Source of the DNA: Candidatus Iainarchaeum sp.
Lineage (GTDB): Archaea > Iainarchaeota > Iainarchaeia > Iainarchaeales > DTGL01
Direction of reading: 5' to 3'
Length of the DNA: 43,999 bases
Assembly: GCA_038895395.1 (NCBI GenBank)
Contig: JAWANJ010000003.1
Location: forward strand, 1 to 43,999
Shown here: piece by piece, positions 9,120-31,869 of the stretch
Position numbering within the stretch: the stretch's first letter is position 1
Layout of the letters: each line of letters opens with the position of its first letter
Notes under the pieces: generated by a model
The model's input: the letters and a program-made list of their open reading frames with translations, nothing else
Told to the model about the DNA's origin: nothing
Databases searched by the model: none
Position numbers and translations under genes: made by a program

Positions 9120-11021
9120 TTAATCACCTTGAATTATGTAACCACAGCTATAGCAGTATTTTGGTTCATTAGTACTTGTGTAACTGCAAGGAACTTCTCC
9201 CTTTAGTACACAATTATTTTTTTCAGCAGTACTTTTCGAAACACACTGGTATGGTGAGCAAAGTGCTTTTTCGCATTCTTTGAGTGTTGCAAAGGTTTTA
9301 AGTCCTTCATACATATAGAGTCCACAGAACTGCTTGTATCCGCATGTGCGAGTTTGATTGTCAAACCAATAGAGATACTTACACTCCGGAGCTGCAGTTG
9401 CAGTTACTGTTGGAATGGGGTATCCTGGCGATGTTGGCTTTGGGGTTATGATTTGTGTAGGGCTAGGCAAAGGGGTTTGTACTGGTGTTTCAGGGCATTT
9501 CGCACAGTAGTAGTATATATCATAACATCTGCCGCCATATGGCGAATCTTCGCATATGCTTTTTGCTATCGGGCAGTCATAACCTTCAACTATCGTGCAA
9601 CCATTTTTGTAAATCTCCTCTTTTGTCATACACTTGTATGGATAAGAACACTTCGTGCTTGGTTCTCCACACTTTCCTTTGTAATCAACTTCCACGCCAG
9701 CGCATTTCGCTTCACACGAGTTACCATAAGTTTTGCCATCTTTTCCGCACACTGGGTCATACAATGCTGGGCAAGTGCATTGCTGAGATGGTGTCGTTAA
9801 GCACTCATAACCTATCACACAGCCTTTTTCATCATATTTTGGAACTATCTTACCATTTGGACAAAAGTTTGGATCTAACGGTGGCTGTTGGTTCTGACAT
9901 ACTTGAATTATGGTTCCAGGACATTTTGCACACACAAAGCCAGCAGAACAATTATAGGTATCTGAAGAACCAATTATAGCGCAATTGTTTTTCTTTGCAT
10001 CCTCTACAGGCATGCAACCATATGGCTCGTAGCAAATTTTTTTGTTATTGGTGCAAATAGCATGACATTTTCCACAAAAGTCTTCAGTTATAATTCTTCC
10101 TGCTGTTTCTTCACTACCACCACTTACAGTGTAACAAGGTACGCAAGTTTTTATGCATTCTTCCATGCATAGACCAGTTTCACCTGATGGTGCTGTTGTT
10201 TTTGTAGCTCCTACTGACAAGTTTGTCTGTGGTGCACACTTCTGTACACATTGGTCTTTACACTTAAGGCATTCTTGAACACGTTCTGGCATGCCTTCTC
10301 TTTCATGGATTCTTGTAGTAACATAAGGACCAACGTTTGTACTAACCTGCACTACACAGAAATCAAGAGCTGGGTTCTCTTCGCAAAGTTTCTTCAAATA
10401 TTGTTTACATCTTACGTCACTTACATTGTTCAAACAGTAACCCTTCCAAAGCTCATTGCAATCCTCACTGTTTGGATTTTGCTCGCAATAGTTGACCTTT
10501 TTGCATTCTTCTGCATTTGTTTTATTGCTACAATATTCTTTAACATTCTTTACCTGTTCAACAGGCCTGAATACAGTGCTGTACTGAAGATAATAAGCGT
10601 AGTAGGTTTTGTCTTTAATGGAAGCTTTTCCAGCCCACACAATGGCTTCCGGTGTATCAACGTAAATCAAAGAGATGCTGCCTACAAGTAAGTTTTTATC
10701 ATATATATTTGCTGAAAAAGCACTATTTGTTGCTTCAATGTCTTTTAAAATATACTTTAACTTATCAAAGACAAGTATTCCTGTCTTAAGCTTTTCTTGT
10801 GATTCGTTGTAAGGAATTACTGCCCTAAATGATGCAGATATTATTCTGCTTGAGTGTATGTCTAAAGTATCATCTGCATTAACTAATATTCCTTTAGCGC
10901 TTATGTGGATATTTTTTATTTCAAAAGATCCACCGCCCTGGGCAACAGAAAATGGAATTAAAATACCAAGCAAAATAAAAACAAAAACCAAATTATATGA
11001 AATTCTTTTAAGTTTTGACAT
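9120..11021 (-). CDS. Secreted Cys-rich multidomain protein containing a Kazal domain
   Basis: Signal peptide, many Cys-rich modules, Kazal motif CTCPALYDPVCGKDGKTYGNSCEAKCAGVEVDYKGKC and Pro/Thr linkers. Confidence 0.85.
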   Translation of the reverse strand: MSKLKRISYNLVFVFILLGILIPFSVAQGGGSFEIKNIHISAKGILVNADDTLDIHSSRIISASFRAVIPYNESQEKLKTGILVFDKLKYILKDIEATNSAFSANIYDKNLLVGSISLIYVDTPEAIVWAGKASIKDKTYYAYYLQYSTVFRPVEQVKNVKEYCSNKTNAEECKKVNYCEQNPNSEDCNELWKGYCLNNVSDVRCKQYLKKLCEENPALDFCVVQVSTNVGPYVTTRIHEREGMPERVQECLKCKDQCVQKCAPQTNLSVGATKTTAPSGETGLCMEECIKTCVPCYTVSGGSEETAGRIITEDFCGKCHAICTNNKKICYEPYGCMPVEDAKKNNCAIIGSSDTYNCSAGFVCAKCPGTIIQVCQNQQPPLDPNFCPNGKIVPKYDEKGCVIGYECLTTPSQQCTCPALYDPVCGKDGKTYGNSCEAKCAGVEVDYKGKCGEPSTKCSYPYKCMTKEEIYKNGCTIVEGYDCPIAKSICEDSPYGGRCYDIYYYCAKCPETPVQTPLPSPTQIITPKPTSPGYPIPTVTATAAPECKYLYWFDNQTRTCGYKQFCGLYMYEGLKTFATLKECEKALCSPYQCVSKSTAEKNNCVLKGEVPCSYTSTNEPKYCYSCGYIIQGD

Positions 11022-11112
11022 CCTTTGTCACCGCCTTATGGTTTGAAACAAATACAAATAAATACTAAGTACTTATATTTAAACCTTTTGTAATGGGGGG
11101 AATAGGGTGTAA

Positions 11113-11313
11113 TGGGGCTGCTGGGATTTGAACCCAGGTCGCCAGCTAATTCGAGAAGAAACCACCTTTTAACTATACACAGACTTTCCTTTTAAAGTTC
11201 TGTAGATCATAAGAACCTTTGCTAGGTTCTCACGGATGCTGGACTTCATAAGAACCCGCAGGAGGTTCTTATTCCCGAAGCTGGTATGCTGAGCCAAACT
11301 ACACCACAGCCCC
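11113..11313 (-). tRNA. tRNA-Pro(CGG) with a 126-nt intron at position 37/38 (intron 11148-11273)
   Basis: Acceptor stem GGGGCTG/CAGCCCC-A, anticodon stem CCAGC/GCTGG, loop TT-CGG-G^A and T-arm CTGGG-TTCAAAT-CCCAG. The BHB central helix TTCG/CGAA has 3-nt bulges. CCA is not encoded. Confidence 0.93.
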
Positions 11314-11403
11314 AACAATTTTTAATGCTTATTAAAAAAATACTCTCGAGAAACTATAAAAAAGCAATATGGGGCAAATTATTTCTTGTTTAACATTTCA
11401 TAT

Positions 11404-12150
11404 TTACTGTATCATCAAATTTTTCAAATTTCCAAAGTAGTATGGTTTGTCCTCAACAGCCCAACATTCAAAGCTGCTTAAATCTTGCTGTAAAAAAGGG
11501 CTCAATATTTTTTCTCTTAATATGTTGCTTCCTATAGCCACAGAGTTCATACTTGGCATCACAATGAGTGTTTTGTCATATAACTTTCCTTTTAGAAAAC
11601 ATTTGTAAAGCTCACTACGTCCAGCCTCTCTTATTGAAACTGCTGGATGTTCGTGTGCAATTATCATAGAAGAGGCCTCTTTAAATTTTTCACTTTCGCT
11701 TGGCTTATGGCCATGTAAAATAAGCAAGTTATGTCTTTTTATGTAAAATTCTTCCAATATATCCAAACCTTTTCTATTGGCCAAAGGCCCAAGTATTGTG
11801 TCATGATTTCCTTTTACAAGAATCACATCTTTTGTTTGTTCCGAAATGAAGTCAAGCATTGTGAGAACCTCTCGCCACTCTTGTTTACTTATCTCACCAA
11901 ATTCATGCTTAAGATCGCCATTAATTACCACCTGTTTTGGCTTAAGAATCTCAAAAATATGCTTCAAACGATGCTTTATATCTTCAAAGTTTGTTCTTGG
12001 TATCATAATGCCTTGTTTGTTGTACATCTCCTCAATTCCAAGGTGTAAGTCGGCAATTACCAATGTTTTTTCAGGTTTTATAAAGAGGCCCAAATCCGCA
12101 ATCTGAATGTTTACATCGATGGGTAAAAATTGTTCCGTTTTTATGTCCAT
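11404..12150 (-). CDS. Calcineurin-like metallophosphoesterase (Lhr-associated MPE type)
   Basis: IADLHLG, NGDLKH, KGNHD, LHGH and AHEHPA motifs. Confidence 0.92.
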   Translation of the reverse strand: MDIKTEQFLPIDVNIQIADLGLFIKPEKTLVIADLHLGIEEMYNKQGIMIPRTNFEDIKHRLKHIFEILKPKQVVINGDLKHEFGEISKQEWREVLTMLDFISEQTKDVILVKGNHDTILGPLANRKGLDILEEFYIKRHNLLILHGHKPSESEKFKEASSMIIAHEHPAVSIREAGRSELYKCFLKGKLYDKTLIVMPSMNSVAIGSNILREKILSPFLQQDLSSFECWAVEDKPYYFGNLKNLMIQ

Positions 12151-22661: not shown

Positions 22662-23933
22662 ATGATTGAAAGTGTTAGAGCTATCCAAATCTTAGATAGT
22701 AGGGGCAATCCTACAATTGAATGTGAAATAAAATGTAGTAAGGGCGTTGAAAGGGCCTCAGTTCCAAGTGGTGCATCCACTGGTAGTTTTGAGGCCATTG
22801 AGCTTAGAGACAATGAAAAGGCTTATCGCGGCAAGGGTGTATTAAAGGCTGTAGATAACATAAACAAGATAATTGCCCCAAAACTTGTAAAGAAGGATCC
22901 CACAAAGCAACGCGAGCTTGATGAACTGCTGATAAAGCTAGATGGTACTCCAAACAAATCAAAGCTTGGTGCAAATGCAATTACTGCAGTTTCACTTGCA
23001 ATTGCAAGAGCCGGCTCACTGGAAAAAGGTCTGCAACTTTTTGATTACATTGCTGAGCTTAGTGGTGCCAAGAGCATGTATTTGCCAGTGCCACAATTTA
23101 ACATAATAAATGGTGGAAAGCACGCAGGAATGAAAAATGATCCACAAGAGCACATGATAATGCCAATAAAATTTAACAAATATTCCGAAGCTCTTCAAGC
23201 CGGTTGTGAAATATACTACATTCTGAGGGATATGCTCAAGCAAAAGTTTGGCCCCAGAGCAACACTTTTAGCTGATGAAGGTGGTTTTGCTCCACCCATT
23301 GAGACAGTATATGAGAGACTTGAACTTATTGACAAAGCAATTAATGAAGCAGGTTATAATGACAAGGTTTACATGGCGTTAGATCCAGCAGCTTCAGAGT
23401 TTTTCTACAAAGGCACTTACGTTATTGGTGACTCAGAAAAGAATTCAGGTGAAATGATTGATTTCTATTCTGAACTAACGCAGAGTTTTAAAATATTTTC
23501 AATTGAAGATGGGCTTGCCGAGGAAGATTGGGATGGCTGGGTAGAATTTACCAAAAAACTTGGAAATAAAATTCAAATAGTTGGCGACGATTTGCTTGTT
23601 ACAAATGTTGAGCGTATAAAGAAAGCACTTGAGCTAAAAGCATGTAATGCTTTGCTTCTTAAGGTAAACCAAATAGGGACGCTTTCAGAGGCCATAGACG
23701 CAGCTAAGCTTGCAATGGAAAATAGTTGGGAAGTTGTAGTTTCGCATAGAAGCGGTGAAACCTGTGATCCATTTATTGCAAGTTTAGTGGTTGGCCTTGG
23801 TGCAAAGCAATGCAAATTTGGAGCACCAGCCAGAGCAGAACGCACCGCAAAATACAACAACCTTTTGCGCATTGAAGAGATCATGGAAGAGCGAGGAATT
23901 GCAAGATACGCTGGAAAGTATCTTAAGGTATGA
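22662..23933 (+). CDS. eno: Enolase
   Basis: ILDSRGNPT, VPSGASTG, DEGGFAP, LLKVNQIG and SHRSGET. The likely start is ATG 22662 (ORF track gives 22641). Confidence 0.98.
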   Translation: MIESVRAIQILDSRGNPTIECEIKCSKGVERASVPSGASTGSFEAIELRDNEKAYRGKGVLKAVDNINKIIAPKLVKKDPTKQRELDELLIKLDGTPNKSKLGANAITAVSLAIARAGSLEKGLQLFDYIAELSGAKSMYLPVPQFNIINGGKHAGMKNDPQEHMIMPIKFNKYSEALQAGCEIYYILRDMLKQKFGPRATLLADEGGFAPPIETVYERLELIDKAINEAGYNDKVYMALDPAASEFFYKGTYVIGDSEKNSGEMIDFYSELTQSFKIFSIEDGLAEEDWDGWVEFTKKLGNKIQIVGDDLLVTNVERIKKALELKACNALLLKVNQIGTLSEAIDAAKLAMENSWEVVVSHRSGETCDPFIASLVVGLGAKQCKFGAPARAERTAKYNNLLRIEEIMEERGIARYAGKYLKV

Positions 23934-25996: not shown

Positions 25997-26399
25997 CCAA
26001 ATACCTTATTCTAATTTTTTGTTGTTATAACCAATTTTATTAGTTCTTATGAGCTTCATATAAAACAATCTTTACCTATATAAAAATTTATCTTTTTTAA
26101 CAAAATTTTTGTCTTTTGGTGGCAAAGGTTCATCTTTATTTTTCATTTTTCTTTATAATAAATTTTAACTATAAGCAATACTATCCTCGAAAAAATTATC
26201 CCTAAAAATAAAACAATAGATTTAAAAAAACATAAACGTTATTATAATCAATGTCTTTATCTCAAAAAGTGATAGCACAGCTAGTATGTTATATTAACTT
26301 TTTAACTTAGCTTTTGCTCAGCTTCCAGAGCCAACTTTTCCAACACCCAACTTTCCCGTAGGAAGCTTTCCAACACCTGATTTTAATCTCCCCGGGGGA

Positions 26400-27296
26400 A
26401 TGCCAGGTTTCCCCGGAGGAAGTATGCCAAGCTTCCCTGGTAGTGACTTTAATTTCCCAGCACCAGGCACAATGCCTGACTTAAATCTTCCAACCGGAAT
26501 CGGCGGGTTACCAGGGGCTTCAGGCGAAATTTCTTTACCAGCTATGAAAATTGATTTTGCTCTGCAAATTTTGTTGTCAGAATATAAAGCAGGAAAATCG
26601 TTAGAAGTTACTGCTAAAAACTTAAATATAAAAATAAGAAAGAATTCTGTTTTGGTTTCAGTAATTGCTGACAAAAATTTCAGTCCTCAAAAATGGGGTA
26701 TGGCCGATACTAACGAAGAAAAATCTGGACAAATGTCTTTGTATACCGGCTATGTTGCAGTTGATAAACTAGAAAAAATGAGCGAAGACAGAAGCGTAAA
26801 TTACATAATGGCTGCAAGATTGCCAAGTGAAATAGTTCATGAGGTAGTCTCAATTAAATTATCTCCAGAGCTTCTTGCAATAGTGAAATGCATAAAGCAG
26901 TTCAAAGAAAATTGCGATGTTGAACGTATCGCACGTGATAACTCTCTTGAATATAAAAATGGCTCTTTGCTTGTTTATATTACAACAAATAATAACGCTA
27001 GACCATGTGTTGAAGCAAATATAGTTGAAGAAATCCCTGATAAGGCTGATCCAAGTATAAAAACTTTTAAGGCATATGTTCCAGCTACAAAACTTGAAGA
27101 GCTCTCAAACTGCCCGGATGTTGAATTTGTCAGTGGCATTACTGTTACAGGCATAGAGTTAGGCATATGTTGCATTTTGCTTCTCATAGTGTCAGTTGCA
27201 ATTCTTTTGTATTTGGTGAGCTTTGTATACCTTAAAAAAAGGGAAAAAGATAAAATTGAAAAGATGTTGGTGATAAAACGTCAGAAACAAAATTAA
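26400..27296 (+). CDS. Membrane-anchored protein with Pro/Gly-rich N-terminus and two subtilase-propeptide-like repeats; 5' end possibly frameshifted
   Basis: The frame is open from 26298 (LFNLAFAQLPEPTFPTPNF...). The repeats end GYVAVDKLEKMSEDRSVNYI and AYVPATKLEELSNCPDVEFV, followed by a C-terminal TM and basic tail. Confidence 0.65.
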   Translation: MPGFPGGSMPSFPGSDFNFPAPGTMPDLNLPTGIGGLPGASGEISLPAMKIDFALQILLSEYKAGKSLEVTAKNLNIKIRKNSVLVSVIADKNFSPQKWGMADTNEEKSGQMSLYTGYVAVDKLEKMSEDRSVNYIMAARLPSEIVHEVVSIKLSPELLAIVKCIKQFKENCDVERIARDNSLEYKNGSLLVYITTNNNARPCVEANIVEEIPDKADPSIKTFKAYVPATKLEELSNCPDVEFVSGITVTGIELGICCILLLIVSVAILLYLVSFVYLKKREKDKIEKMLVIKRQKQN

Positions 27297-27325
27297 TTAA
27301 AAACATAAATAAAAGTTCAGTACTA

Positions 27326-30300
27326 TTGGGACTGCTTTTAATAGTCTTCTTTACCTCTGCACATGCGCAAGCAACAAACGTAAGCGCGACAGATTGTAAG
27401 GCCAACCACATCACTTTTAAAGATGGCAATTACGAGTTTCAGGGCGATATATCGTGCGCTTATGTTTATATTTATGCCAAAAACCAAGATACCACCATCG
27501 ATTGCCAGGGCGCCAAATTTGCAGCATACTATTTCTATTACTACCCGGGTGATGGAAGCACCATTACCATAAGAAACTGCAAATTCGAGCCTTATAGAAA
27601 TTATTCGACCTATAGCTACCATTATTTTTCAGAAACAAAGAGCGCCGGTTTTGAGTATATAAATAACACATTTGAGAATGTGTACTACCAGGTGCAGCGT
27701 ACATATGCAAAAAGAACAAAAGTTGATTTTAATTTTGTTGACAACAACATTCTAAACTCCCGGTTCAATTTGTATTTCTATGATTATTACACGCAACAAC
27801 CCGACCTTACGCTTAACTTGGCCGGCAACAATATGACCAACTCACAATTCTACGTTTATTTCTATGACTACTACAACCAAAGCACAGGCCCTAATATTTA
27901 CGCTAACATTTACAAGAACAATTTCAAGAATTCTTACCTAGCATTGGTTTGCTACAACTACTACTCGAACCTTCAAAGCGGCATTAATCGGCAAATTTCT
28001 ATTGTTGACAACAACTTTGAACTTTCACAAGTATATCTGCAAAATTATTACTATAACTACAGTTCTTCTCTCCGAGACGTTAATCTTTATTTGGAAGTAA
28101 AAAGAAATCTTTTCAACAATACATCATTTTATCTTTATGACTATGGCTATAGGTATCCCAAATTTAAAAAGACTTTACCATCTAAAGATACACACATCGA
28201 GCTTACAGAAAATGATTTTAACTTAGCTCTCGTTGTTCTGTATTTGTATCCATATTATTGGTTGACCGACACTAATATGGAGTTAATTTTTTCAAGAAAT
28301 AAACTTCATGCTACAAGCTTAAATATTCACGATTACAGATATGCACAAAGTGGCAAAATAGAACTTTCCTACAATGACATAAATAGATCACAGATAAGCT
28401 TTGGCTATTGGAACTATTGGTATTGGCACTACTGGAACTGGTGGTACTACCATTGGTACTATGCTTGGTATTACTGGTATTATTATGGCATAGTAATTGA
28501 TCCAAAAATTGGTGAAATTAATGTTTTGGGCAACAAACTTGAGAAAAGCAGACTTGATTTTTTAGGCTATTGGCCTTCAGCCTATTCAAGCCTTACAGTA
28601 ATTGATAATATCTTCAACGGTTTCTACTGTCCGCCTAACCTAAAAGACAACGAATGTAAAAATTACTACAAAGATATGAGCAAAATTTATTGGGTTGGCT
28701 TGAATCAGCTCACTGTGCCCACCAAAAATAATACTGTTATTTCTAACAATGAGTTTTATGGTGATACTAATTACATTGGCTCTGCGATAACCCATCTATC
28801 AGACCCTTATAACGGGCCATACTATGGCGGTCCTTACGACTACTGGTGGATGTGTTATTATTGGGGCTACTGTGGGTGGTACTACTATTACTACTGGTAC
28901 TACTACTACTATTACTATTACTACTGGTACTACTATTACTACTGGTACTACTACTACTATTACTACTGGTACTACTACGCTAAATACTATCCGTACACTT
29001 ATTGGTACTACTACTACTATTACTACACTTATTGGTACTACTACTATTACTATTACTACTGGTACTACTATTACTACTGGTACTACTACGGCTACTACTA
29101 CAGATGGTACTACTGGTACTACTACAGATACTATTACTATTACTACTGGTACTACTACAGATACTACTATGGATATTATCCTTTCTTCGACATATGGGAA
29201 AAAGGCGTTTTCGAGCTATCAAACAACACCTTTAGAGGTTTCTATAGTGGAATTGAGACATTATCCTCTTCAGATGGGCAGATTGCAGTTATAAAGAACA
29301 ATATCTTTGAAGACAACAAGTATGGAATTAAATACGTAAGTAGCAATGGTACAATGCTGATTTACAACAACATTTTTAGTAACAATGAAATTGGTATTGG
29401 TGGCATAAGTGGTACAGTTGGCGCTTCGCCATATTTCCCATACGCTTATATCGGTGGTCCTATATCCGTATATGATAACCGCTTCGAGAATAACAGCAAG
29501 TGGGCCATAAAGTATGTTGGTGCTGATATCTGGTATGCACCTTACTATGGCAAGTCAGAGGACGGCATATACAACTATGACCCAGCAAATAGGCGCTCTG
29601 GACCAATGTTCACAAGACAAGAAGTTGATGACTATCTCAAACAATCAAAGACAATGCTTATATGCATGGCCAACAACGACTTCACTGCGATGCCCAATAC
29701 AGGGGCCAATGCAACAGAGGGCGTAATAAAGAAAATCTCTGATGCAGCCAACTATAATGGCCAGTGCTTGGGCTTTTGCAGTGGTGGCATAAACAGTCCG
29801 CCTATAGCTGACTTTGAGGTAACACCAAACACAGGGGTTTCCAACCTAACAGTTGATTTCTATGATCGTTCATATGACAAAGACGGTAGTATTGTTTCGT
29901 GGTTATGGGACTTTGGCGATGGTACATACAGTACAGACCAAAATCCAACACATACTTACACAAGCAATGGGCCCTTCACTGTAACCTTGACTGTTAAAGA
30001 CGATGGTGGTGCCAAGAACAGCAAACAGAAGAAAATTACCCCTTATGACACAGCTTCAATAACTGAAATATCAGTGGAAGATATTTCAGCAGGTGAAAGC
30101 GCTAAGATAAGCGTAACATGCACAAAAGACCTGGAAGGTGTGCTAAAGGTTTACTTTGATCCTCTCGGAGCAAATACTAAGATCTATGAGTCAACCTATA
30201 AATGCAACTCTGGCGCAGTATCAGTAGGTCCACTCACGGAGATAGGCGTATACCTTGCAAGGTATGACCTTAGTGTGCCTTCTGGCTCATGCACAAAATG

Positions 30301-30436
30301 CAGCGCAGAGAAGGAATTCATTGTAAAGAAAAGCGCAGTAACAACAGCACCAGAAGAGCCAGTTGTTGCGGTTGCTGCACTAATTCTAGTTTTCGCAGTT
30401 TTGTTTGCTGGGAAGGGTCTTAAGAGAAATAAGTAG
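27326..30436 (+). CDS. Large surface protein: parallel beta-helix repeats with Tyr/Trp-rich loops, PKD domain, C-terminal PE-TM anchor
   Basis: Signal peptide, repeated 'xxNNxFxN' coils and PKD motif WLWDFGDG...NPTHTY (~29792-30040). The C-terminus reads APEEPVVAVAALILVFAVLFAGKGLKRNK. The true start may be 27278. Confidence 0.85.
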   Translation: MGLLLIVFFTSAHAQATNVSATDCKANHITFKDGNYEFQGDISCAYVYIYAKNQDTTIDCQGAKFAAYYFYYYPGDGSTITIRNCKFEPYRNYSTYSYHYFSETKSAGFEYINNTFENVYYQVQRTYAKRTKVDFNFVDNNILNSRFNLYFYDYYTQQPDLTLNLAGNNMTNSQFYVYFYDYYNQSTGPNIYANIYKNNFKNSYLALVCYNYYSNLQSGINRQISIVDNNFELSQVYLQNYYYNYSSSLRDVNLYLEVKRNLFNNTSFYLYDYGYRYPKFKKTLPSKDTHIELTENDFNLALVVLYLYPYYWLTDTNMELIFSRNKLHATSLNIHDYRYAQSGKIELSYNDINRSQISFGYWNYWYWHYWNWWYYHWYYAWYYWYYYGIVIDPKIGEINVLGNKLEKSRLDFLGYWPSAYSSLTVIDNIFNGFYCPPNLKDNECKNYYKDMSKIYWVGLNQLTVPTKNNTVISNNEFYGDTNYIGSAITHLSDPYNGPYYGGPYDYWWMCYYWGYCGWYYYYYWYYYYYYYYYWYYYYYWYYYYYYYWYYYAKYYPYTYWYYYYYYYTYWYYYYYYYYWYYYYYWYYYGYYYRWYYWYYYRYYYYYYWYYYRYYYGYYPFFDIWEKGVFELSNNTFRGFYSGIETLSSSDGQIAVIKNNIFEDNKYGIKYVSSNGTMLIYNNIFSNNEIGIGGISGTVGASPYFPYAYIGGPISVYDNRFENNSKWAIKYVGADIWYAPYYGKSEDGIYNYDPANRRSGPMFTRQEVDDYLKQSKTMLICMANNDFTAMPNTGANATEGVIKKISDAANYNGQCLGFCSGGINSPPIADFEVTPNTGVSNLTVDFYDRSYDKDGSIVSWLWDFGDGTYSTDQNPTHTYTSNGPFTVTLTVKDDGGAKNSKQKKITPYDTASITEISVEDISAGESAKISVTCTKDLEGVLKVYFDPLGANTKIYESTYKCNSGAVSVGPLTEIGVYLARYDLSVPSGSCTKCSAEKEFIVKKSAVTTAPEEPVVAVAALILVFAVLFAGKGLKRNK
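28877..29179 (+). repeat. Low-complexity (TAC/TAT)n-TGG coding repeat (poly-Tyr/Trp tract)
   Basis: 101 codons, of which 79 are Tyr and 12 are Trp. It contains an exact 54-nt direct repeat at 28901-28954 and 29036-29089. Confidence 0.95.
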
Positions 30437-30499: not shown

Positions 30500-31378
30500 A
30501 TGCTTGTAGTTTACTCAGATGAATTTTTGAAACATTCTTTCATAAATCACCCCGAGAGCCCAGGTAGGCTTTTCTCAATAAAAAAAGTACTTGACAAAAA
30601 GAAGGGATTCCAATACATCGTACCAAATGCCGCCACCAATGATGACCTTCTTAAGGTACATACTAAGGAACTTATCGAAGACCTAAAAATTCGCTCAGAA
30701 AAGCGCCTTGGTGATGCTGATAATCCCTTTGTCTCAAATACTTTTGAAATAGCAAAGCTTAGCGCTGGCGCTGCTATAGAAGCAGCAAAGCATGCTGAAA
30801 GCAAATGCTTTTCCCTTGCAAGGCCTCCTGGGCATCATGCTGGAAGAAATTTTTTTGGAGGATTTTGTTACCTTAACAATATTGCAGTTGGTGTTGCAAG
30901 CATATCTAAAAAATATGGTCGAATATTGATTGTTGACTTCGATGTACACTTAGGCCAGGGTACACTTGACATCTTTGCTGGAAGCGATTCTGTGTTTTAT
31001 CTTTCGTTTCATCAAGATGCTAACACAATTTACCCATGGTACGAGCCAACTATAAATAAAAATAATATAAAATTAGTTCCATTGCCTATAGGCATTGGTG
31101 ATAAAAAATACTTAAACACATTCAAGAAAAACTTTAATGAAGTTTTTTCAAAATTTCAACCAGATCTTATAGCATGCTCAGCAGGCTTTGATTCATACTA
31201 TGCAGATTATCGTTATGTTGGTAGTGCTCTGGAACTAAAAAACCCCTCAACCTTTAGGCATATTGGTGAGACCATAGCGAAAACAAAAAAACCAAGCTTC
31301 GCGGTTCTTGAAGGTGGCTATGAGCCGGAAACTTTGGGCTCTTTAGTTTATGAGTTTCTGAGAGGATGGCAAGGATGA
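30500..31378 (+). CDS. Histone deacetylase/AcuC/acetylpolyamine amidohydrolase family protein
   Basis: HPESPGRL, RPPGHHA, GGFCYLNN, DFDVHLGQGT, SAGFD and LEGGY motifs. Confidence 0.94.
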   Translation: MLVVYSDEFLKHSFINHPESPGRLFSIKKVLDKKKGFQYIVPNAATNDDLLKVHTKELIEDLKIRSEKRLGDADNPFVSNTFEIAKLSAGAAIEAAKHAESKCFSLARPPGHHAGRNFFGGFCYLNNIAVGVASISKKYGRILIVDFDVHLGQGTLDIFAGSDSVFYLSFHQDANTIYPWYEPTINKNNIKLVPLPIGIGDKKYLNTFKKNFNEVFSKFQPDLIACSAGFDSYYADYRYVGSALELKNPSTFRHIGETIAKTKKPSFAVLEGGYEPETLGSLVYEFLRGWQG

Positions 31379-31869
31379 AGGTGCTTATAGCTTATCAGGG
31401 TGACAACAAAACAAATGCTCAGGTAGCCGAAACAATGAAAAAGGTATTTGAAGAAAATGGAGCTGAAGTTAAAGTTGAGGGCATAAGACCAACGATAGAG
31501 ATGCGCCTTTATGATTATATAAAAGAATTTAAAAAAAAGAAAAAAATTGAGTTCAAAAAAGCAACAACAGATGTCAAAAGTTATGACCTTGTTGTCATTG
31601 GTACGCCAGTTCTAAAATTTTCCCCAACACCTTTGATGGAAACTTATGTAAGATCTTTAAAAAATACCAAGGGCAAGAAGTTTGTGCTCTATTGTACTCC
31701 TGTTGGTTTTGCTGGGAGTACAATAAAAAGATTGGCAAACATTTTAGCAACAAAAGGTGGCCTAATTGTATCAACTTTGACAATTTCTTCAATATTTGAG
31801 CTAAACGAAGAAAAGCTTGCAAGAGTAAAGAGTTATACTCAGCAGCTGATAAATGATTTAAAACAATAG
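31375..31869 (+). CDS. Flavodoxin-like fold protein
   Basis: MKVLIAYQ...TNAQVAE and YDLVVIGTPV. The phosphate-binding loop is degenerate. Confidence 0.75.
   Translation: MKVLIAYQGDNKTNAQVAETMKKVFEENGAEVKVEGIRPTIEMRLYDYIKEFKKKKKIEFKKATTDVKSYDLVVIGTPVLKFSPTPLMETYVRSLKNTKGKKFVLYCTPVGFAGSTIKRLANILATKGGLIVSTLTISSIFELNEEKLARVKSYTQQLINDLKQ

Follow-up and report, generated by a model that had tools for sequence, protein, structure and literature searches.

A conserved 101-residue tract of tyrosine and tryptophan in a surface-type protein of three related Iainarchaeum genomes

Mussel foot proteins, resilin and extensins contain 10-30% Tyr, spaced by Gly, Lys or Pro in repeats of variable length, and need tyrosinase or peroxidase chemistry. 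FUS-like stickers of the [G/S]Y[G/S] type are disordered, evolve fast, are rich in insertions and deletions (indels) and hold Tyr in much more dilute form. Poly-Tyr and poly-Trp rank among the rarest homorepeats in surveys. The CotC and CotU proteins we take to be small, with roughly one third Tyr mixed with Lys and Asp, and not near-homopolymers. According to PMC7944565, CotC and CotU are tyrosine-rich outer-coat proteins of Bacillus subtilis that assemble into high-mass forms, and dityrosine links in the spore coat are thought to require a peroxidase. In two further sources, the human polyW group consists of a single protein (PMC4683181), and 'polyY' stands for a generic second residue and not for tyrosine (PMC9550522). 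Here we analyse a gene of Candidatus Iainarchaeum sp. in which 101 consecutive codons are 90% Tyr or Trp. It lies in a window of 43,999 bp, which is one whole contig of an 880-kb, 53-contig genome (G000; 36.6% GC, 96.6% completeness, 0.5% contamination).

The main Tyr/Trp (Y/W) tract of this gene consists of 79 Tyr, 12 Trp, 3 Arg, 2 Thr, 2 Gly and single Ala, Lys and Pro residues. Its codons include 62 TAC, 17 TAT and 12 TGG, with no Phe and no stop. This recount confirms what a preliminary description of the locus had reported, namely 79 Tyr and 12 Trp in 101 codons without Phe, TAA or TAG. Acidic residues number zero and basic residues four. The background in long open reading frames (ORFs) of the genome is 3.9% Tyr and 0.87% Trp; the best 20-residue stretch in the tract is Tyr or Trp at 20 of 20 positions, and the runner-up anywhere in the genome, among 1348 ORFs of at least 100 amino acids, reaches 9 of 20. 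A chance origin of the tract composition is excluded. The protein as a whole has 185 Tyr and 32 Trp, is still 11.3% Tyr outside the main tract and has the highest Tyr content (17.5%; median 3.5%, 95th percentile 5.9%) among the 578 ORFs of at least 200 amino acids in the genome. It also contains a second, shorter Y/W tract at residues 360-388, overlooked in the preliminary description. At the DNA level the main tract is a degenerate tandem array with Tandem Repeats Finder periods of 9, 24 and 33 nt at 65-84% matches; in the three species compared below, the longest perfect run is four codons for TAC and two to four for TAT.

A six-frame search of 41 related genomes yielded full-length matches in G002 (87% identity) and G003 (75% identity) only. 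Together with G000, these are the three genomes compared throughout; they belong to the same genus and are related, not independent. They share a gene order of partner gene, Tyr-rich gene, histone deacetylase (HDAC)-like gene and flavodoxin-like gene. The main tract spans 101 codons in each of the three separate assemblies, with differing synonymous patterns; its 101 columns hold no gap, and all six gap columns of the three-way alignment lie outside it. Tyr is kept at 77/79, 76/79 and 76/79 sites in the three species pairs, and 11 of the 12 Trp, all three Arg, the Ala, the Pro and one of the two Gly are invariant. The first Y/W tract has no indel and two substitutions among the three species. 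The upstream gene provides an internal contrast: its PGFPGG/DFNLP repeats differ greatly in copy number among the same genomes.

Tyr has been kept despite considerable turnover between its two codons. TAT and TAC differ at 21/77, 31/76 and 30/76 conserved Tyr sites of the tract, which is similar to the rest of the gene (23/100, 41/92 and 41/90). Between G000 and G003 the codon states in the tract are independent (mismatch 0.408 observed, 0.452 expected; Fisher p 0.39), meaning that synonymous sites have become saturated while Tyr was retained. Non-synonymous differences affect 7 of 101 codons in the tract and 125 of 928, 251 of 924 and 231 of 925 codons elsewhere in the three pairs. For the closest pair, we estimated the ratio of non-synonymous (dN) to synonymous (dS) divergence, omega, by the NG86 method and obtained 0.018 for the tract; the N-terminal part gave 0.138 and the C-terminal part 0.094. 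In the pairs involving G003, dS is saturated, and dN is 0.044-0.054 in the tract versus 0.244-0.246 in the N-terminal part. A neutral two-state estimate for 79 Tyr codons avoiding TAA and TAG over the G000-G003 distance ranges from 1e-43 at kappa 2 to 2e-11 at kappa 8. Judged by these alignments, the main tract is the most constrained part of its protein across the three species, and both Tyr identity and tract length are under strong purifying selection. The preliminary description had read the codon pattern as selection for Tyr itself, and the orthologues, which carry the Tyr-rich loop in the same frame and at the same length, bear this out.

One explanation denies the tract any function of its own and regards it as a trinucleotide repeat that expanded neutrally, as an artefact of the assembly or as a Thr/Ile/Gly linker read in the wrong frame. 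It can appeal to the degenerate repeat character of the DNA and to the occurrence of the same motif in other contexts. A coding motif for W-Y5-W-Y3 was found at 18 metagenome loci, where the Tyr-frame ORFs are 17-111 amino acids long and long ORFs, rich in Asn, Ser and Thr and up to 501 amino acids, lie in other frames. At our locus the frame evidence speaks against such a reading. Both flanks of the tract lie in the Tyr frame of an open frame of 1058 amino acids beginning at 27260, and between-species identity falls from 93/100 in the Tyr frame to 82-88/100 in the Leu/Val frame, which has stops in two species, and to 58-73/100 in the Thr/Ile/Gly frame. The Tyr frame is thus the conserved and selected one, and a Thr-rich linker in an alternative frame was rejected on these grounds. 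An assembly artefact was rejected since three separate assemblies give the same length with different synonymous patterns, and a slippage-prone microsatellite or phase-variable repeat since there are neither long perfect runs (four codons at most) nor length differences or indels among the three species. The low omega of the tract and its 79 Tyr codons without a stop despite saturated synonymous change point the same way. Absence of function is largely refuted, and we regard it as very improbable.

A survey of 215 genomes of the phylum found at least eight consecutive Tyr codons in nine genomes. Three of these hold the Tyr-rich gene, and five others have pure (TAT)n runs with Tyr-frame ORFs of 9-95 amino acids. 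In the remaining genome (G136, from another family of the order), contig C19 opens at positions 1-50 with a mixed TAT/TAC run that in the Tyr frame gives 16 Tyr, then Phe and a stop, at the contig end. The reading frame of this repeat is probably a different one or lies on the opposite strand, and the end of the contig at the repeat indicates that assemblies can break at DNA of this kind. As DNA, the motif also occurs elsewhere; among the data searched, its Tyr reading inside a long gene appears to occur only here.

The tract belongs to a protein of surface-type architecture, with the following features:

27326..30436, plus strand: gene for the Tyr-rich surface protein, ORF of 1036 amino acids, 17.8% Tyr and 3.1% Trp.
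27326..27373, plus strand: putative Sec-type signal peptide (MGLLLIVFFTSAHAQA), from sequence reading and alignment; fuller in the orthologues (MKKAF...AQA).
27374..28405, plus strand: N-terminal beta-solenoid, from AlphaFold2 (AF2), with coils of about 25-36 amino acids, each an NNxFxN motif followed by a Tyr-rich strand.
28403..28489, plus strand: first Y/W tract, residues 360-388; 29 amino acids with 12 Trp and 11 Tyr (GYWNYWYWHYWNWWYYHWYYAWYYWYYYG).
28808..28876, plus strand: pre-tract aromatic/Gly/Pro segment (PYNGPYYGGPYDYWWMCYYWGYCG) with two conserved Cys, from alignment.
28877..29179, plus strand: main Y/W tract, residues 518-618; 101 codons in the Tyr frame.
29210..29509, plus strand: canonical right-handed beta-helix coils, residues 629-728, directly after the tract, from Pfam.
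29792..30028, plus strand: PKD domain, residues 823-901 (PF18911, E 6.3e-21; PF00801, E 1.2e-16).
30038..30328, plus strand: immunoglobulin (Ig)-like beta-sandwich domain, residues ~905-1001, from AF2 strands and weak FN3/Ig tandem fold matches.
30359..30418, plus strand: C-terminal transmembrane helix, then a basic tail KGLKRNK, from sequence and an AF2 helix at residues 1013-1031.

The Tyr-rich strands that follow the NNxFxN motif include FNLYFYDYY, FYVYFYDYY, YLALVCYNYY, VYLQNYYYNY, FYLYDYGYRY and VVLYLYPYYW. In the pre-tract segment 22 of 23 positions are invariant across the three species, N497 being the one that varies. The motifs ISNNEFYG and FELSNNTFRG were both confirmed beside the tract. 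A Pfam scan of the whole protein at E<=0.1 returned PKD-type families only; a scan of the 204 amino acids directly after the tract matched Beta_helix (PF13229, E 5.2e-7, 29.8 bits against a cut-off of 25.9) and NosD (PF05048, 28.9 bits against 23.6) at residues 629-728. The PKD domain scores well above the cut-offs of both its families (PF18911, 74.7 bits against 27; PF00801, 60.9 bits against 23.5), and it has sequence matches in the PDB to PKD domains of ColH. Together with the AF2 model, these results uphold the earlier placement of the tract inside a beta-helix/PKD protein of surface type. The PKD-Ig-anchor part (residues ~820-1030) recurs in otherwise different proteins, with 13 matches in G000 and matches in 22 of the 41 genomes, which suggests a common stalk and anchor bearing variable heads. 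No PGF motif was found before the C-terminal helix (the C-terminus reads ...TTAPEEPVVAVAALILVFAVLFAGKGLKRNK). PGF-CTERM/archaeosortase sorting, which uses that motif, was rejected for this reason; the end resembles a plain transmembrane anchor. The protein has 15 N-x-S/T sequons, and its predicted tryptic peptides inside or after the main tract include WYYWYYYR, YYYYYYWYYYR and YYYGYYPFFDIWEK.

The full-length AF2 model has a mean predicted local distance difference test score (pLDDT) of 45.6. Within it, residues ~14-360 form a solenoid with three strands per coil, mostly at pLDDT 56-92 in 10-residue blocks. These first 360 residues match no Pfam family even at E<=10. An hhalign comparison of residues 100-360 with residues 619-760 gave a probability of 1% and aligned just a 17-column ISxxDNxFExN motif. 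Foldseek against the PDB returned weak FN3/Ig tandem matches, five with E<=0.001 and, among the rows listed, TMq of at most 0.12, and did not match the solenoid; the ESM Atlas gave Beta_helix clusters only, below threshold (0.87). The 29- and 101-residue tracts occupy the position of the Tyr-rich strand in two coils, 53 and 159 residues long. From this coil register, rather than from coordinates, we infer that both tracts are a hypertrophied Tyr-rich strand or turn along one flank of the solenoid. We also infer that the tract is an ordered element and not a floppy brush, because its positions are conserved and its length is fixed.

Such a protein is likely to be costly for its owner. Chorismate synthase (PF01264), prephenate dehydrogenase (PF02153) and TrpA (PF00290) were not found in the 96.6%-complete G000, with each control positive in all 14 reference genomes. 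We regard the organism as a probable auxotroph for aromatic amino acids, in which case the 185 Tyr and 32 Trp of the protein must be scavenged. An intron-containing tRNA-Tyr(GTA) lies on contig C2 of G000 at 22850-22964 (aragorn with the intron option), and we take it as the real tRNA-Tyr. Aragorn also labels a 93-nt gene on contig C51 (4893-4985) Tyr(ata), with and without the intron option; we suspect an intron-bearing tRNA of other identity. The preliminary description had called the organism a probable episymbiont. Its DPANN relatives, its 0.88-Mb genome and the aromatic synthesis genes not found in it agree with that view; the lifestyle itself is plausible, but only plausible.

The extreme constraint, the saturated synonymous sites and the apparent scavenging together argue for a strong, sequence-dependent function. 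We weigh at about even the reading in which the tract forms an extensive aromatic face by which the cell adheres to a partner surface. According to this scheme, a Tyr-rich strand would have been expanded in two coils by duplication of TAC/TAT/TGG units, to 29 and to 101 amino acids, and both expansions would later have been frozen. The ordered tracts would enlarge the solenoid's Tyr-rich flank to form a nearly uncharged (net +4) aromatic contact surface. It would be displayed by a beta-solenoid head of ~800 amino acids on a PKD and Ig-like stalk, held by the C-terminal membrane helix. The surface might then stick the cell to a partner, be it a host envelope, glycans, a membrane interface or particles. 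Binding could proceed through massed pi-stacking, CH-pi contacts and phenol hydrogen bonds, and enzymatic cross-linking would be unneeded. Binding interfaces of proteins, like membrane interfaces, are enriched in Tyr and Trp above all other residues.

Several observations weigh against the adhesive reading. The evidence comes from three related genomes. Host-contact adhesins often evolve fast, and here the tract is instead the most conserved part of the protein. In the full-length AF2 model the tract appears at pLDDT 20-31 as meaningless low-confidence helices, and a separate model of residues 389-830 (442 amino acids) has a mean pLDDT of 32. Expression in G000 may be impaired. The ATG-AAA-AAG start (MKK) of the orthologues reads ATA-AAT-AAA in G000 (27305-27313), and the first ATG, GTG or TTG of the gene there is the TTG at 27326, which falls within the hydrophobic signal-peptide core. 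The partner gene has an upstream ATG at 26286 and an in-frame TAA at codon 4 (26295-26297), within the signal peptide region of the orthologues; as a result, the listed partner ORF starts only at 26400 and lacks a signal peptide. The altered start of the Tyr-rich gene could reflect the loss of the start codon, the use of a non-canonical one or an error in the consensus, but together with the TAA it means that the two-gene cassette may be poorly expressed or decaying in G000. RNA data are equivocal as well. A sediment metatranscriptome contains one 257-nt contig (depth 4.2) that starts with 28865-28900 and ends with 29102-29199 (1 mismatch there), so it has both tract edges but falls 78 nt short of the corresponding stretch in G000. 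The main tract holds 35 repeated 31-mers, and for this reason an assembly at k=31 could have collapsed it. The contig hints only weakly at a near-identical strain and perhaps at transcription, as an RNA library may contain DNA. In public sequencing runs we found none holding the locus; the matching runs share only 5-6% of sampled words, and three of them match nothing but generic TAC-repeat words (29104-29191) of other organisms, which makes them uninformative on both habitat and tract.

Codon choice is the last of these points. The tract favours TAC (62:17), whereas the genome favours TAT (5037 TAT, 2813 TAC; Fisher p 3e-14), but the TAC excess of the tract over the rest of its gene has p 2.5e-7 in G000, 2e-4 in G003 and 0.13, not significant, in G002. 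The excess may result from selection for the cognate codon or from descent from a (TAC)n-like repeat. As a mere (TAC)n relic it was rejected, for the G000 and G003 codon states are independent and yet the excess persists in both. Its persistence hints at codon-level selection, a point we do not press since G002 shows no significant excess.

Fixed length and strict conservation would equally suit a lattice contact. On this basis one may think of a self-assembling or cross-linked envelope, in which neighbouring tracts of a membrane-anchored protein of extreme Tyr composition zip together by Tyr-Tyr stacking or dityrosine and harden a coat in the manner of CotC/CotU. Two results make this unlikely in our judgement. 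First, Cu-oxidase_3 (PF07732) and peroxidase (PF00141) were not found in G000, with controls positive in 6/14 and 5/14 genomes, respectively; tyrosinase (PF00264) was not found either, but its control was silent, making that result uninformative. Second, the gene is present in just three of the seven genomes of the genus, which is odd for a core envelope component. The enzymatic route to the cross-linking proposed in the preliminary description is left without support, no multicopper oxidase and no PF00141 peroxidase having been found. The host or an abiotic oxidant is a possible source of Tyr cross-linking, and neighbouring tracts could also zip together non-covalently.

The same residue composition may be viewed in terms of membranes. 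Tyr and Trp favour membrane interfaces (a rough estimate from Wimley-White values, made without a dedicated tool, puts the tract at about -90 kcal/mol), the tract has basic but no acidic residues, and the stalk displays it away from the cell's own membrane. It might accordingly enter the interface of a foreign (host) membrane, holding cells together or perturbing the host membrane. However, there is no amphipathic or hydrophobic-helix signal, and the S-layer that covers most archaea would have to be crossed; we consider such an anchor improbable.

Slightly less credit still goes to a redox module, in which stacked Tyr and Trp would either conduct electrons or hopping holes or absorb radicals sacrificially at the cell surface. 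It is known that Tyr/Trp chains can carry oxidising holes and that aromatic stacking has been linked to conductive filaments, and the Trp residues of the tract are regularly interspersed at conserved positions. On the other hand, the gene and its immediate surroundings show no evident redox cofactor site, haem motif or partner oxidoreductase, its HDAC-like and flavodoxin-like neighbours are both apparently cytoplasmic, and a sacrificial sink needs no positional conservation.

The adhesive reading can also be put more boldly: the tract would be the first natural poly-aromatic domain, near-homopolymeric, folded, of fixed length and pi-stacked, having evolved from a Tyr-rich beta-helix strand. 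An auxotroph would use it as a contact organ facing a host or substrate, and it could act as an electron or hole bridge as well. We regard this as doubtful; if true, it would provide a template for protein-based adhesives or conductors.

The Tyr-rich head has a narrow distribution. A profile of residues 1-517 matched three of the 196 genomes of the order, which are three of the seven in the genus. In the other genus members, the region upstream of the HDAC-like gene holds other genes (G001, G004 and G005) or, in G006, the contig ends 547 nt upstream. The neighbours of the Tyr-rich gene in the window are as follows:

26400..27296, plus strand: upstream partner gene, membrane-anchored, with N-terminal PGFPGG/DFNLP repeats (ORF as listed).
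30500-31869, plus strand: histone-deacetylase-family gene (PF00850, E 1e-61) and flavodoxin/flavin mononucleotide (FMN)-reductase-like gene, directly downstream.

Every genus member checked has the HDAC-like and flavodoxin-like genes in synteny; the HDAC-like gene of G004 was matched as two pieces, residues 1-196 and 191-290. Strong matches to the partner gene occur only in G000, G002 and G003, with one weak match in G010 (4 of 21 genomes searched), and the partner and Tyr-rich genes look like a lineage-specific cassette. The weak relative in G010, a genome of the sister genus (C16:20986-22619, E 4e-5), adjoins a 902-residue PKD-Ig-anchor protein. The two gene types may therefore have been paired before the Tyr-rich head arose.

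Elsewhere in G000, contig C26 has a second Tyr-rich open frame (10255-11469, minus strand; 405 amino acids, 13.8% Tyr) that runs to the contig end. Its long low-complexity tail of Ser, Thr and Tyr (...STYSTYPRTYSAYSTTYYTPTYS...) represents another type of Tyr-rich tract. A 632-residue protein in the window (9120-11021, minus strand) matches the Kazal-type serine-protease inhibitor family (PF00050, 28.6 bits against a cut-off of 21), a domain that to our knowledge is uncommon in archaea. The scanned ORFs of the window included no nos genes, with which a NosD-type copper-binding maturation protein would be associated, and no dedicated nos search was made.

Searches of wider collections returned little. 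A scan of named genomes matched 75 stretches, two of them relatives, both 'MAG: Candidatus Iainarchaeum archaeon'. Two peptides of the first tract matched 220 metagenome stretches, none a relative. The profile of residues 1-517 had a sole match (E 9e-7) among 1.84 billion representative proteins, an unrelated repetitive protein of 1657 amino acids. In a protein collection from which the family itself is absent, residues 1-815 gave 3720 candidates, none with E<=0.001, and the tract region (residues 500-625) gave 726, none with E<=1. Exact look-up of five versions of three ORFs found none in this collection, and low-complexity correction may also suppress matches; the blank searches are weak evidence of uniqueness. 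A literature search found no report of a comparable tract, and 'tyrosine-rich' combined with DPANN returned nothing. The preliminary description had recognised no prokaryotic precedent, and none has emerged from the genome, metagenome, protein and literature searches run.

Low-complexity tracts normally drift in length, and an aromatic tract fixed at 101 residues departs from that rule. This conservation demands explanation even if the adhesive reading is wrong. The protein is a candidate component of the machinery for cell contact in DPANN archaea, which is poorly understood, and a natural test case of whether a near-pure aromatic polypeptide folds, stacks, adheres or conducts in water. It is also a possible lead for bio-adhesive or conductive protein materials.

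How, then, does the protein relate to systems already described? Its host framework is of a known kind. Like the beta-helix/PKD 'adhesin-like' envelope proteins, it has NNxFxN coils, a PKD domain, an Ig-like domain and a C-terminal anchor. It differs from them in that none known to us carries an insertion of 101 amino acids with 90% Tyr/Trp, and in that no credible relative was found for its N-terminal 517 residues. The Y/W module is thus the part for which we found no described counterpart. With regard to the DNA, the tract resembles trinucleotide-repeat loci and homorepeats in having probably arisen by duplication of 9-, 24- and 33-nt units, and differs from them in its invariant length in three species and its perfect runs of at most four codons.

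Among tyrosine-rich proteins, CotC and CotU offer the nearest prokaryotic analogy found: they too are extracellular, unusually high in Tyr and thought to multimerise. Their cross-linking, however, is ascribed to a peroxidase, and neither a Cu-oxidase nor PF00141 was found in G000. Mussel foot proteins, resilin and extensins share with the archaeal protein a Tyr-based adhesive or cross-linked extracellular material; the archaeal tract differs in being 90% Tyr and Trp, in its fixed length and in the two oxidase families not found. In composition (17.8% Tyr overall, 78% in the tract) and surface-type architecture, the protein is Tyr-rich and extracellular in the sense used for dityrosine and 3,4-dihydroxyphenylalanine (DOPA) proteins. 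A disordered aromatic 'sticker' domain was rejected, given the tract omega of 0.018, the absence of indels and only 10 non-aromatic residues in 101. What the tract does have in common with FUS-like stickers, and with the Tyr/Ser loops of synthetic antibodies, is the use of Tyr as a general-purpose contact residue, and it is this property that would give the adhesive reading its physical basis.

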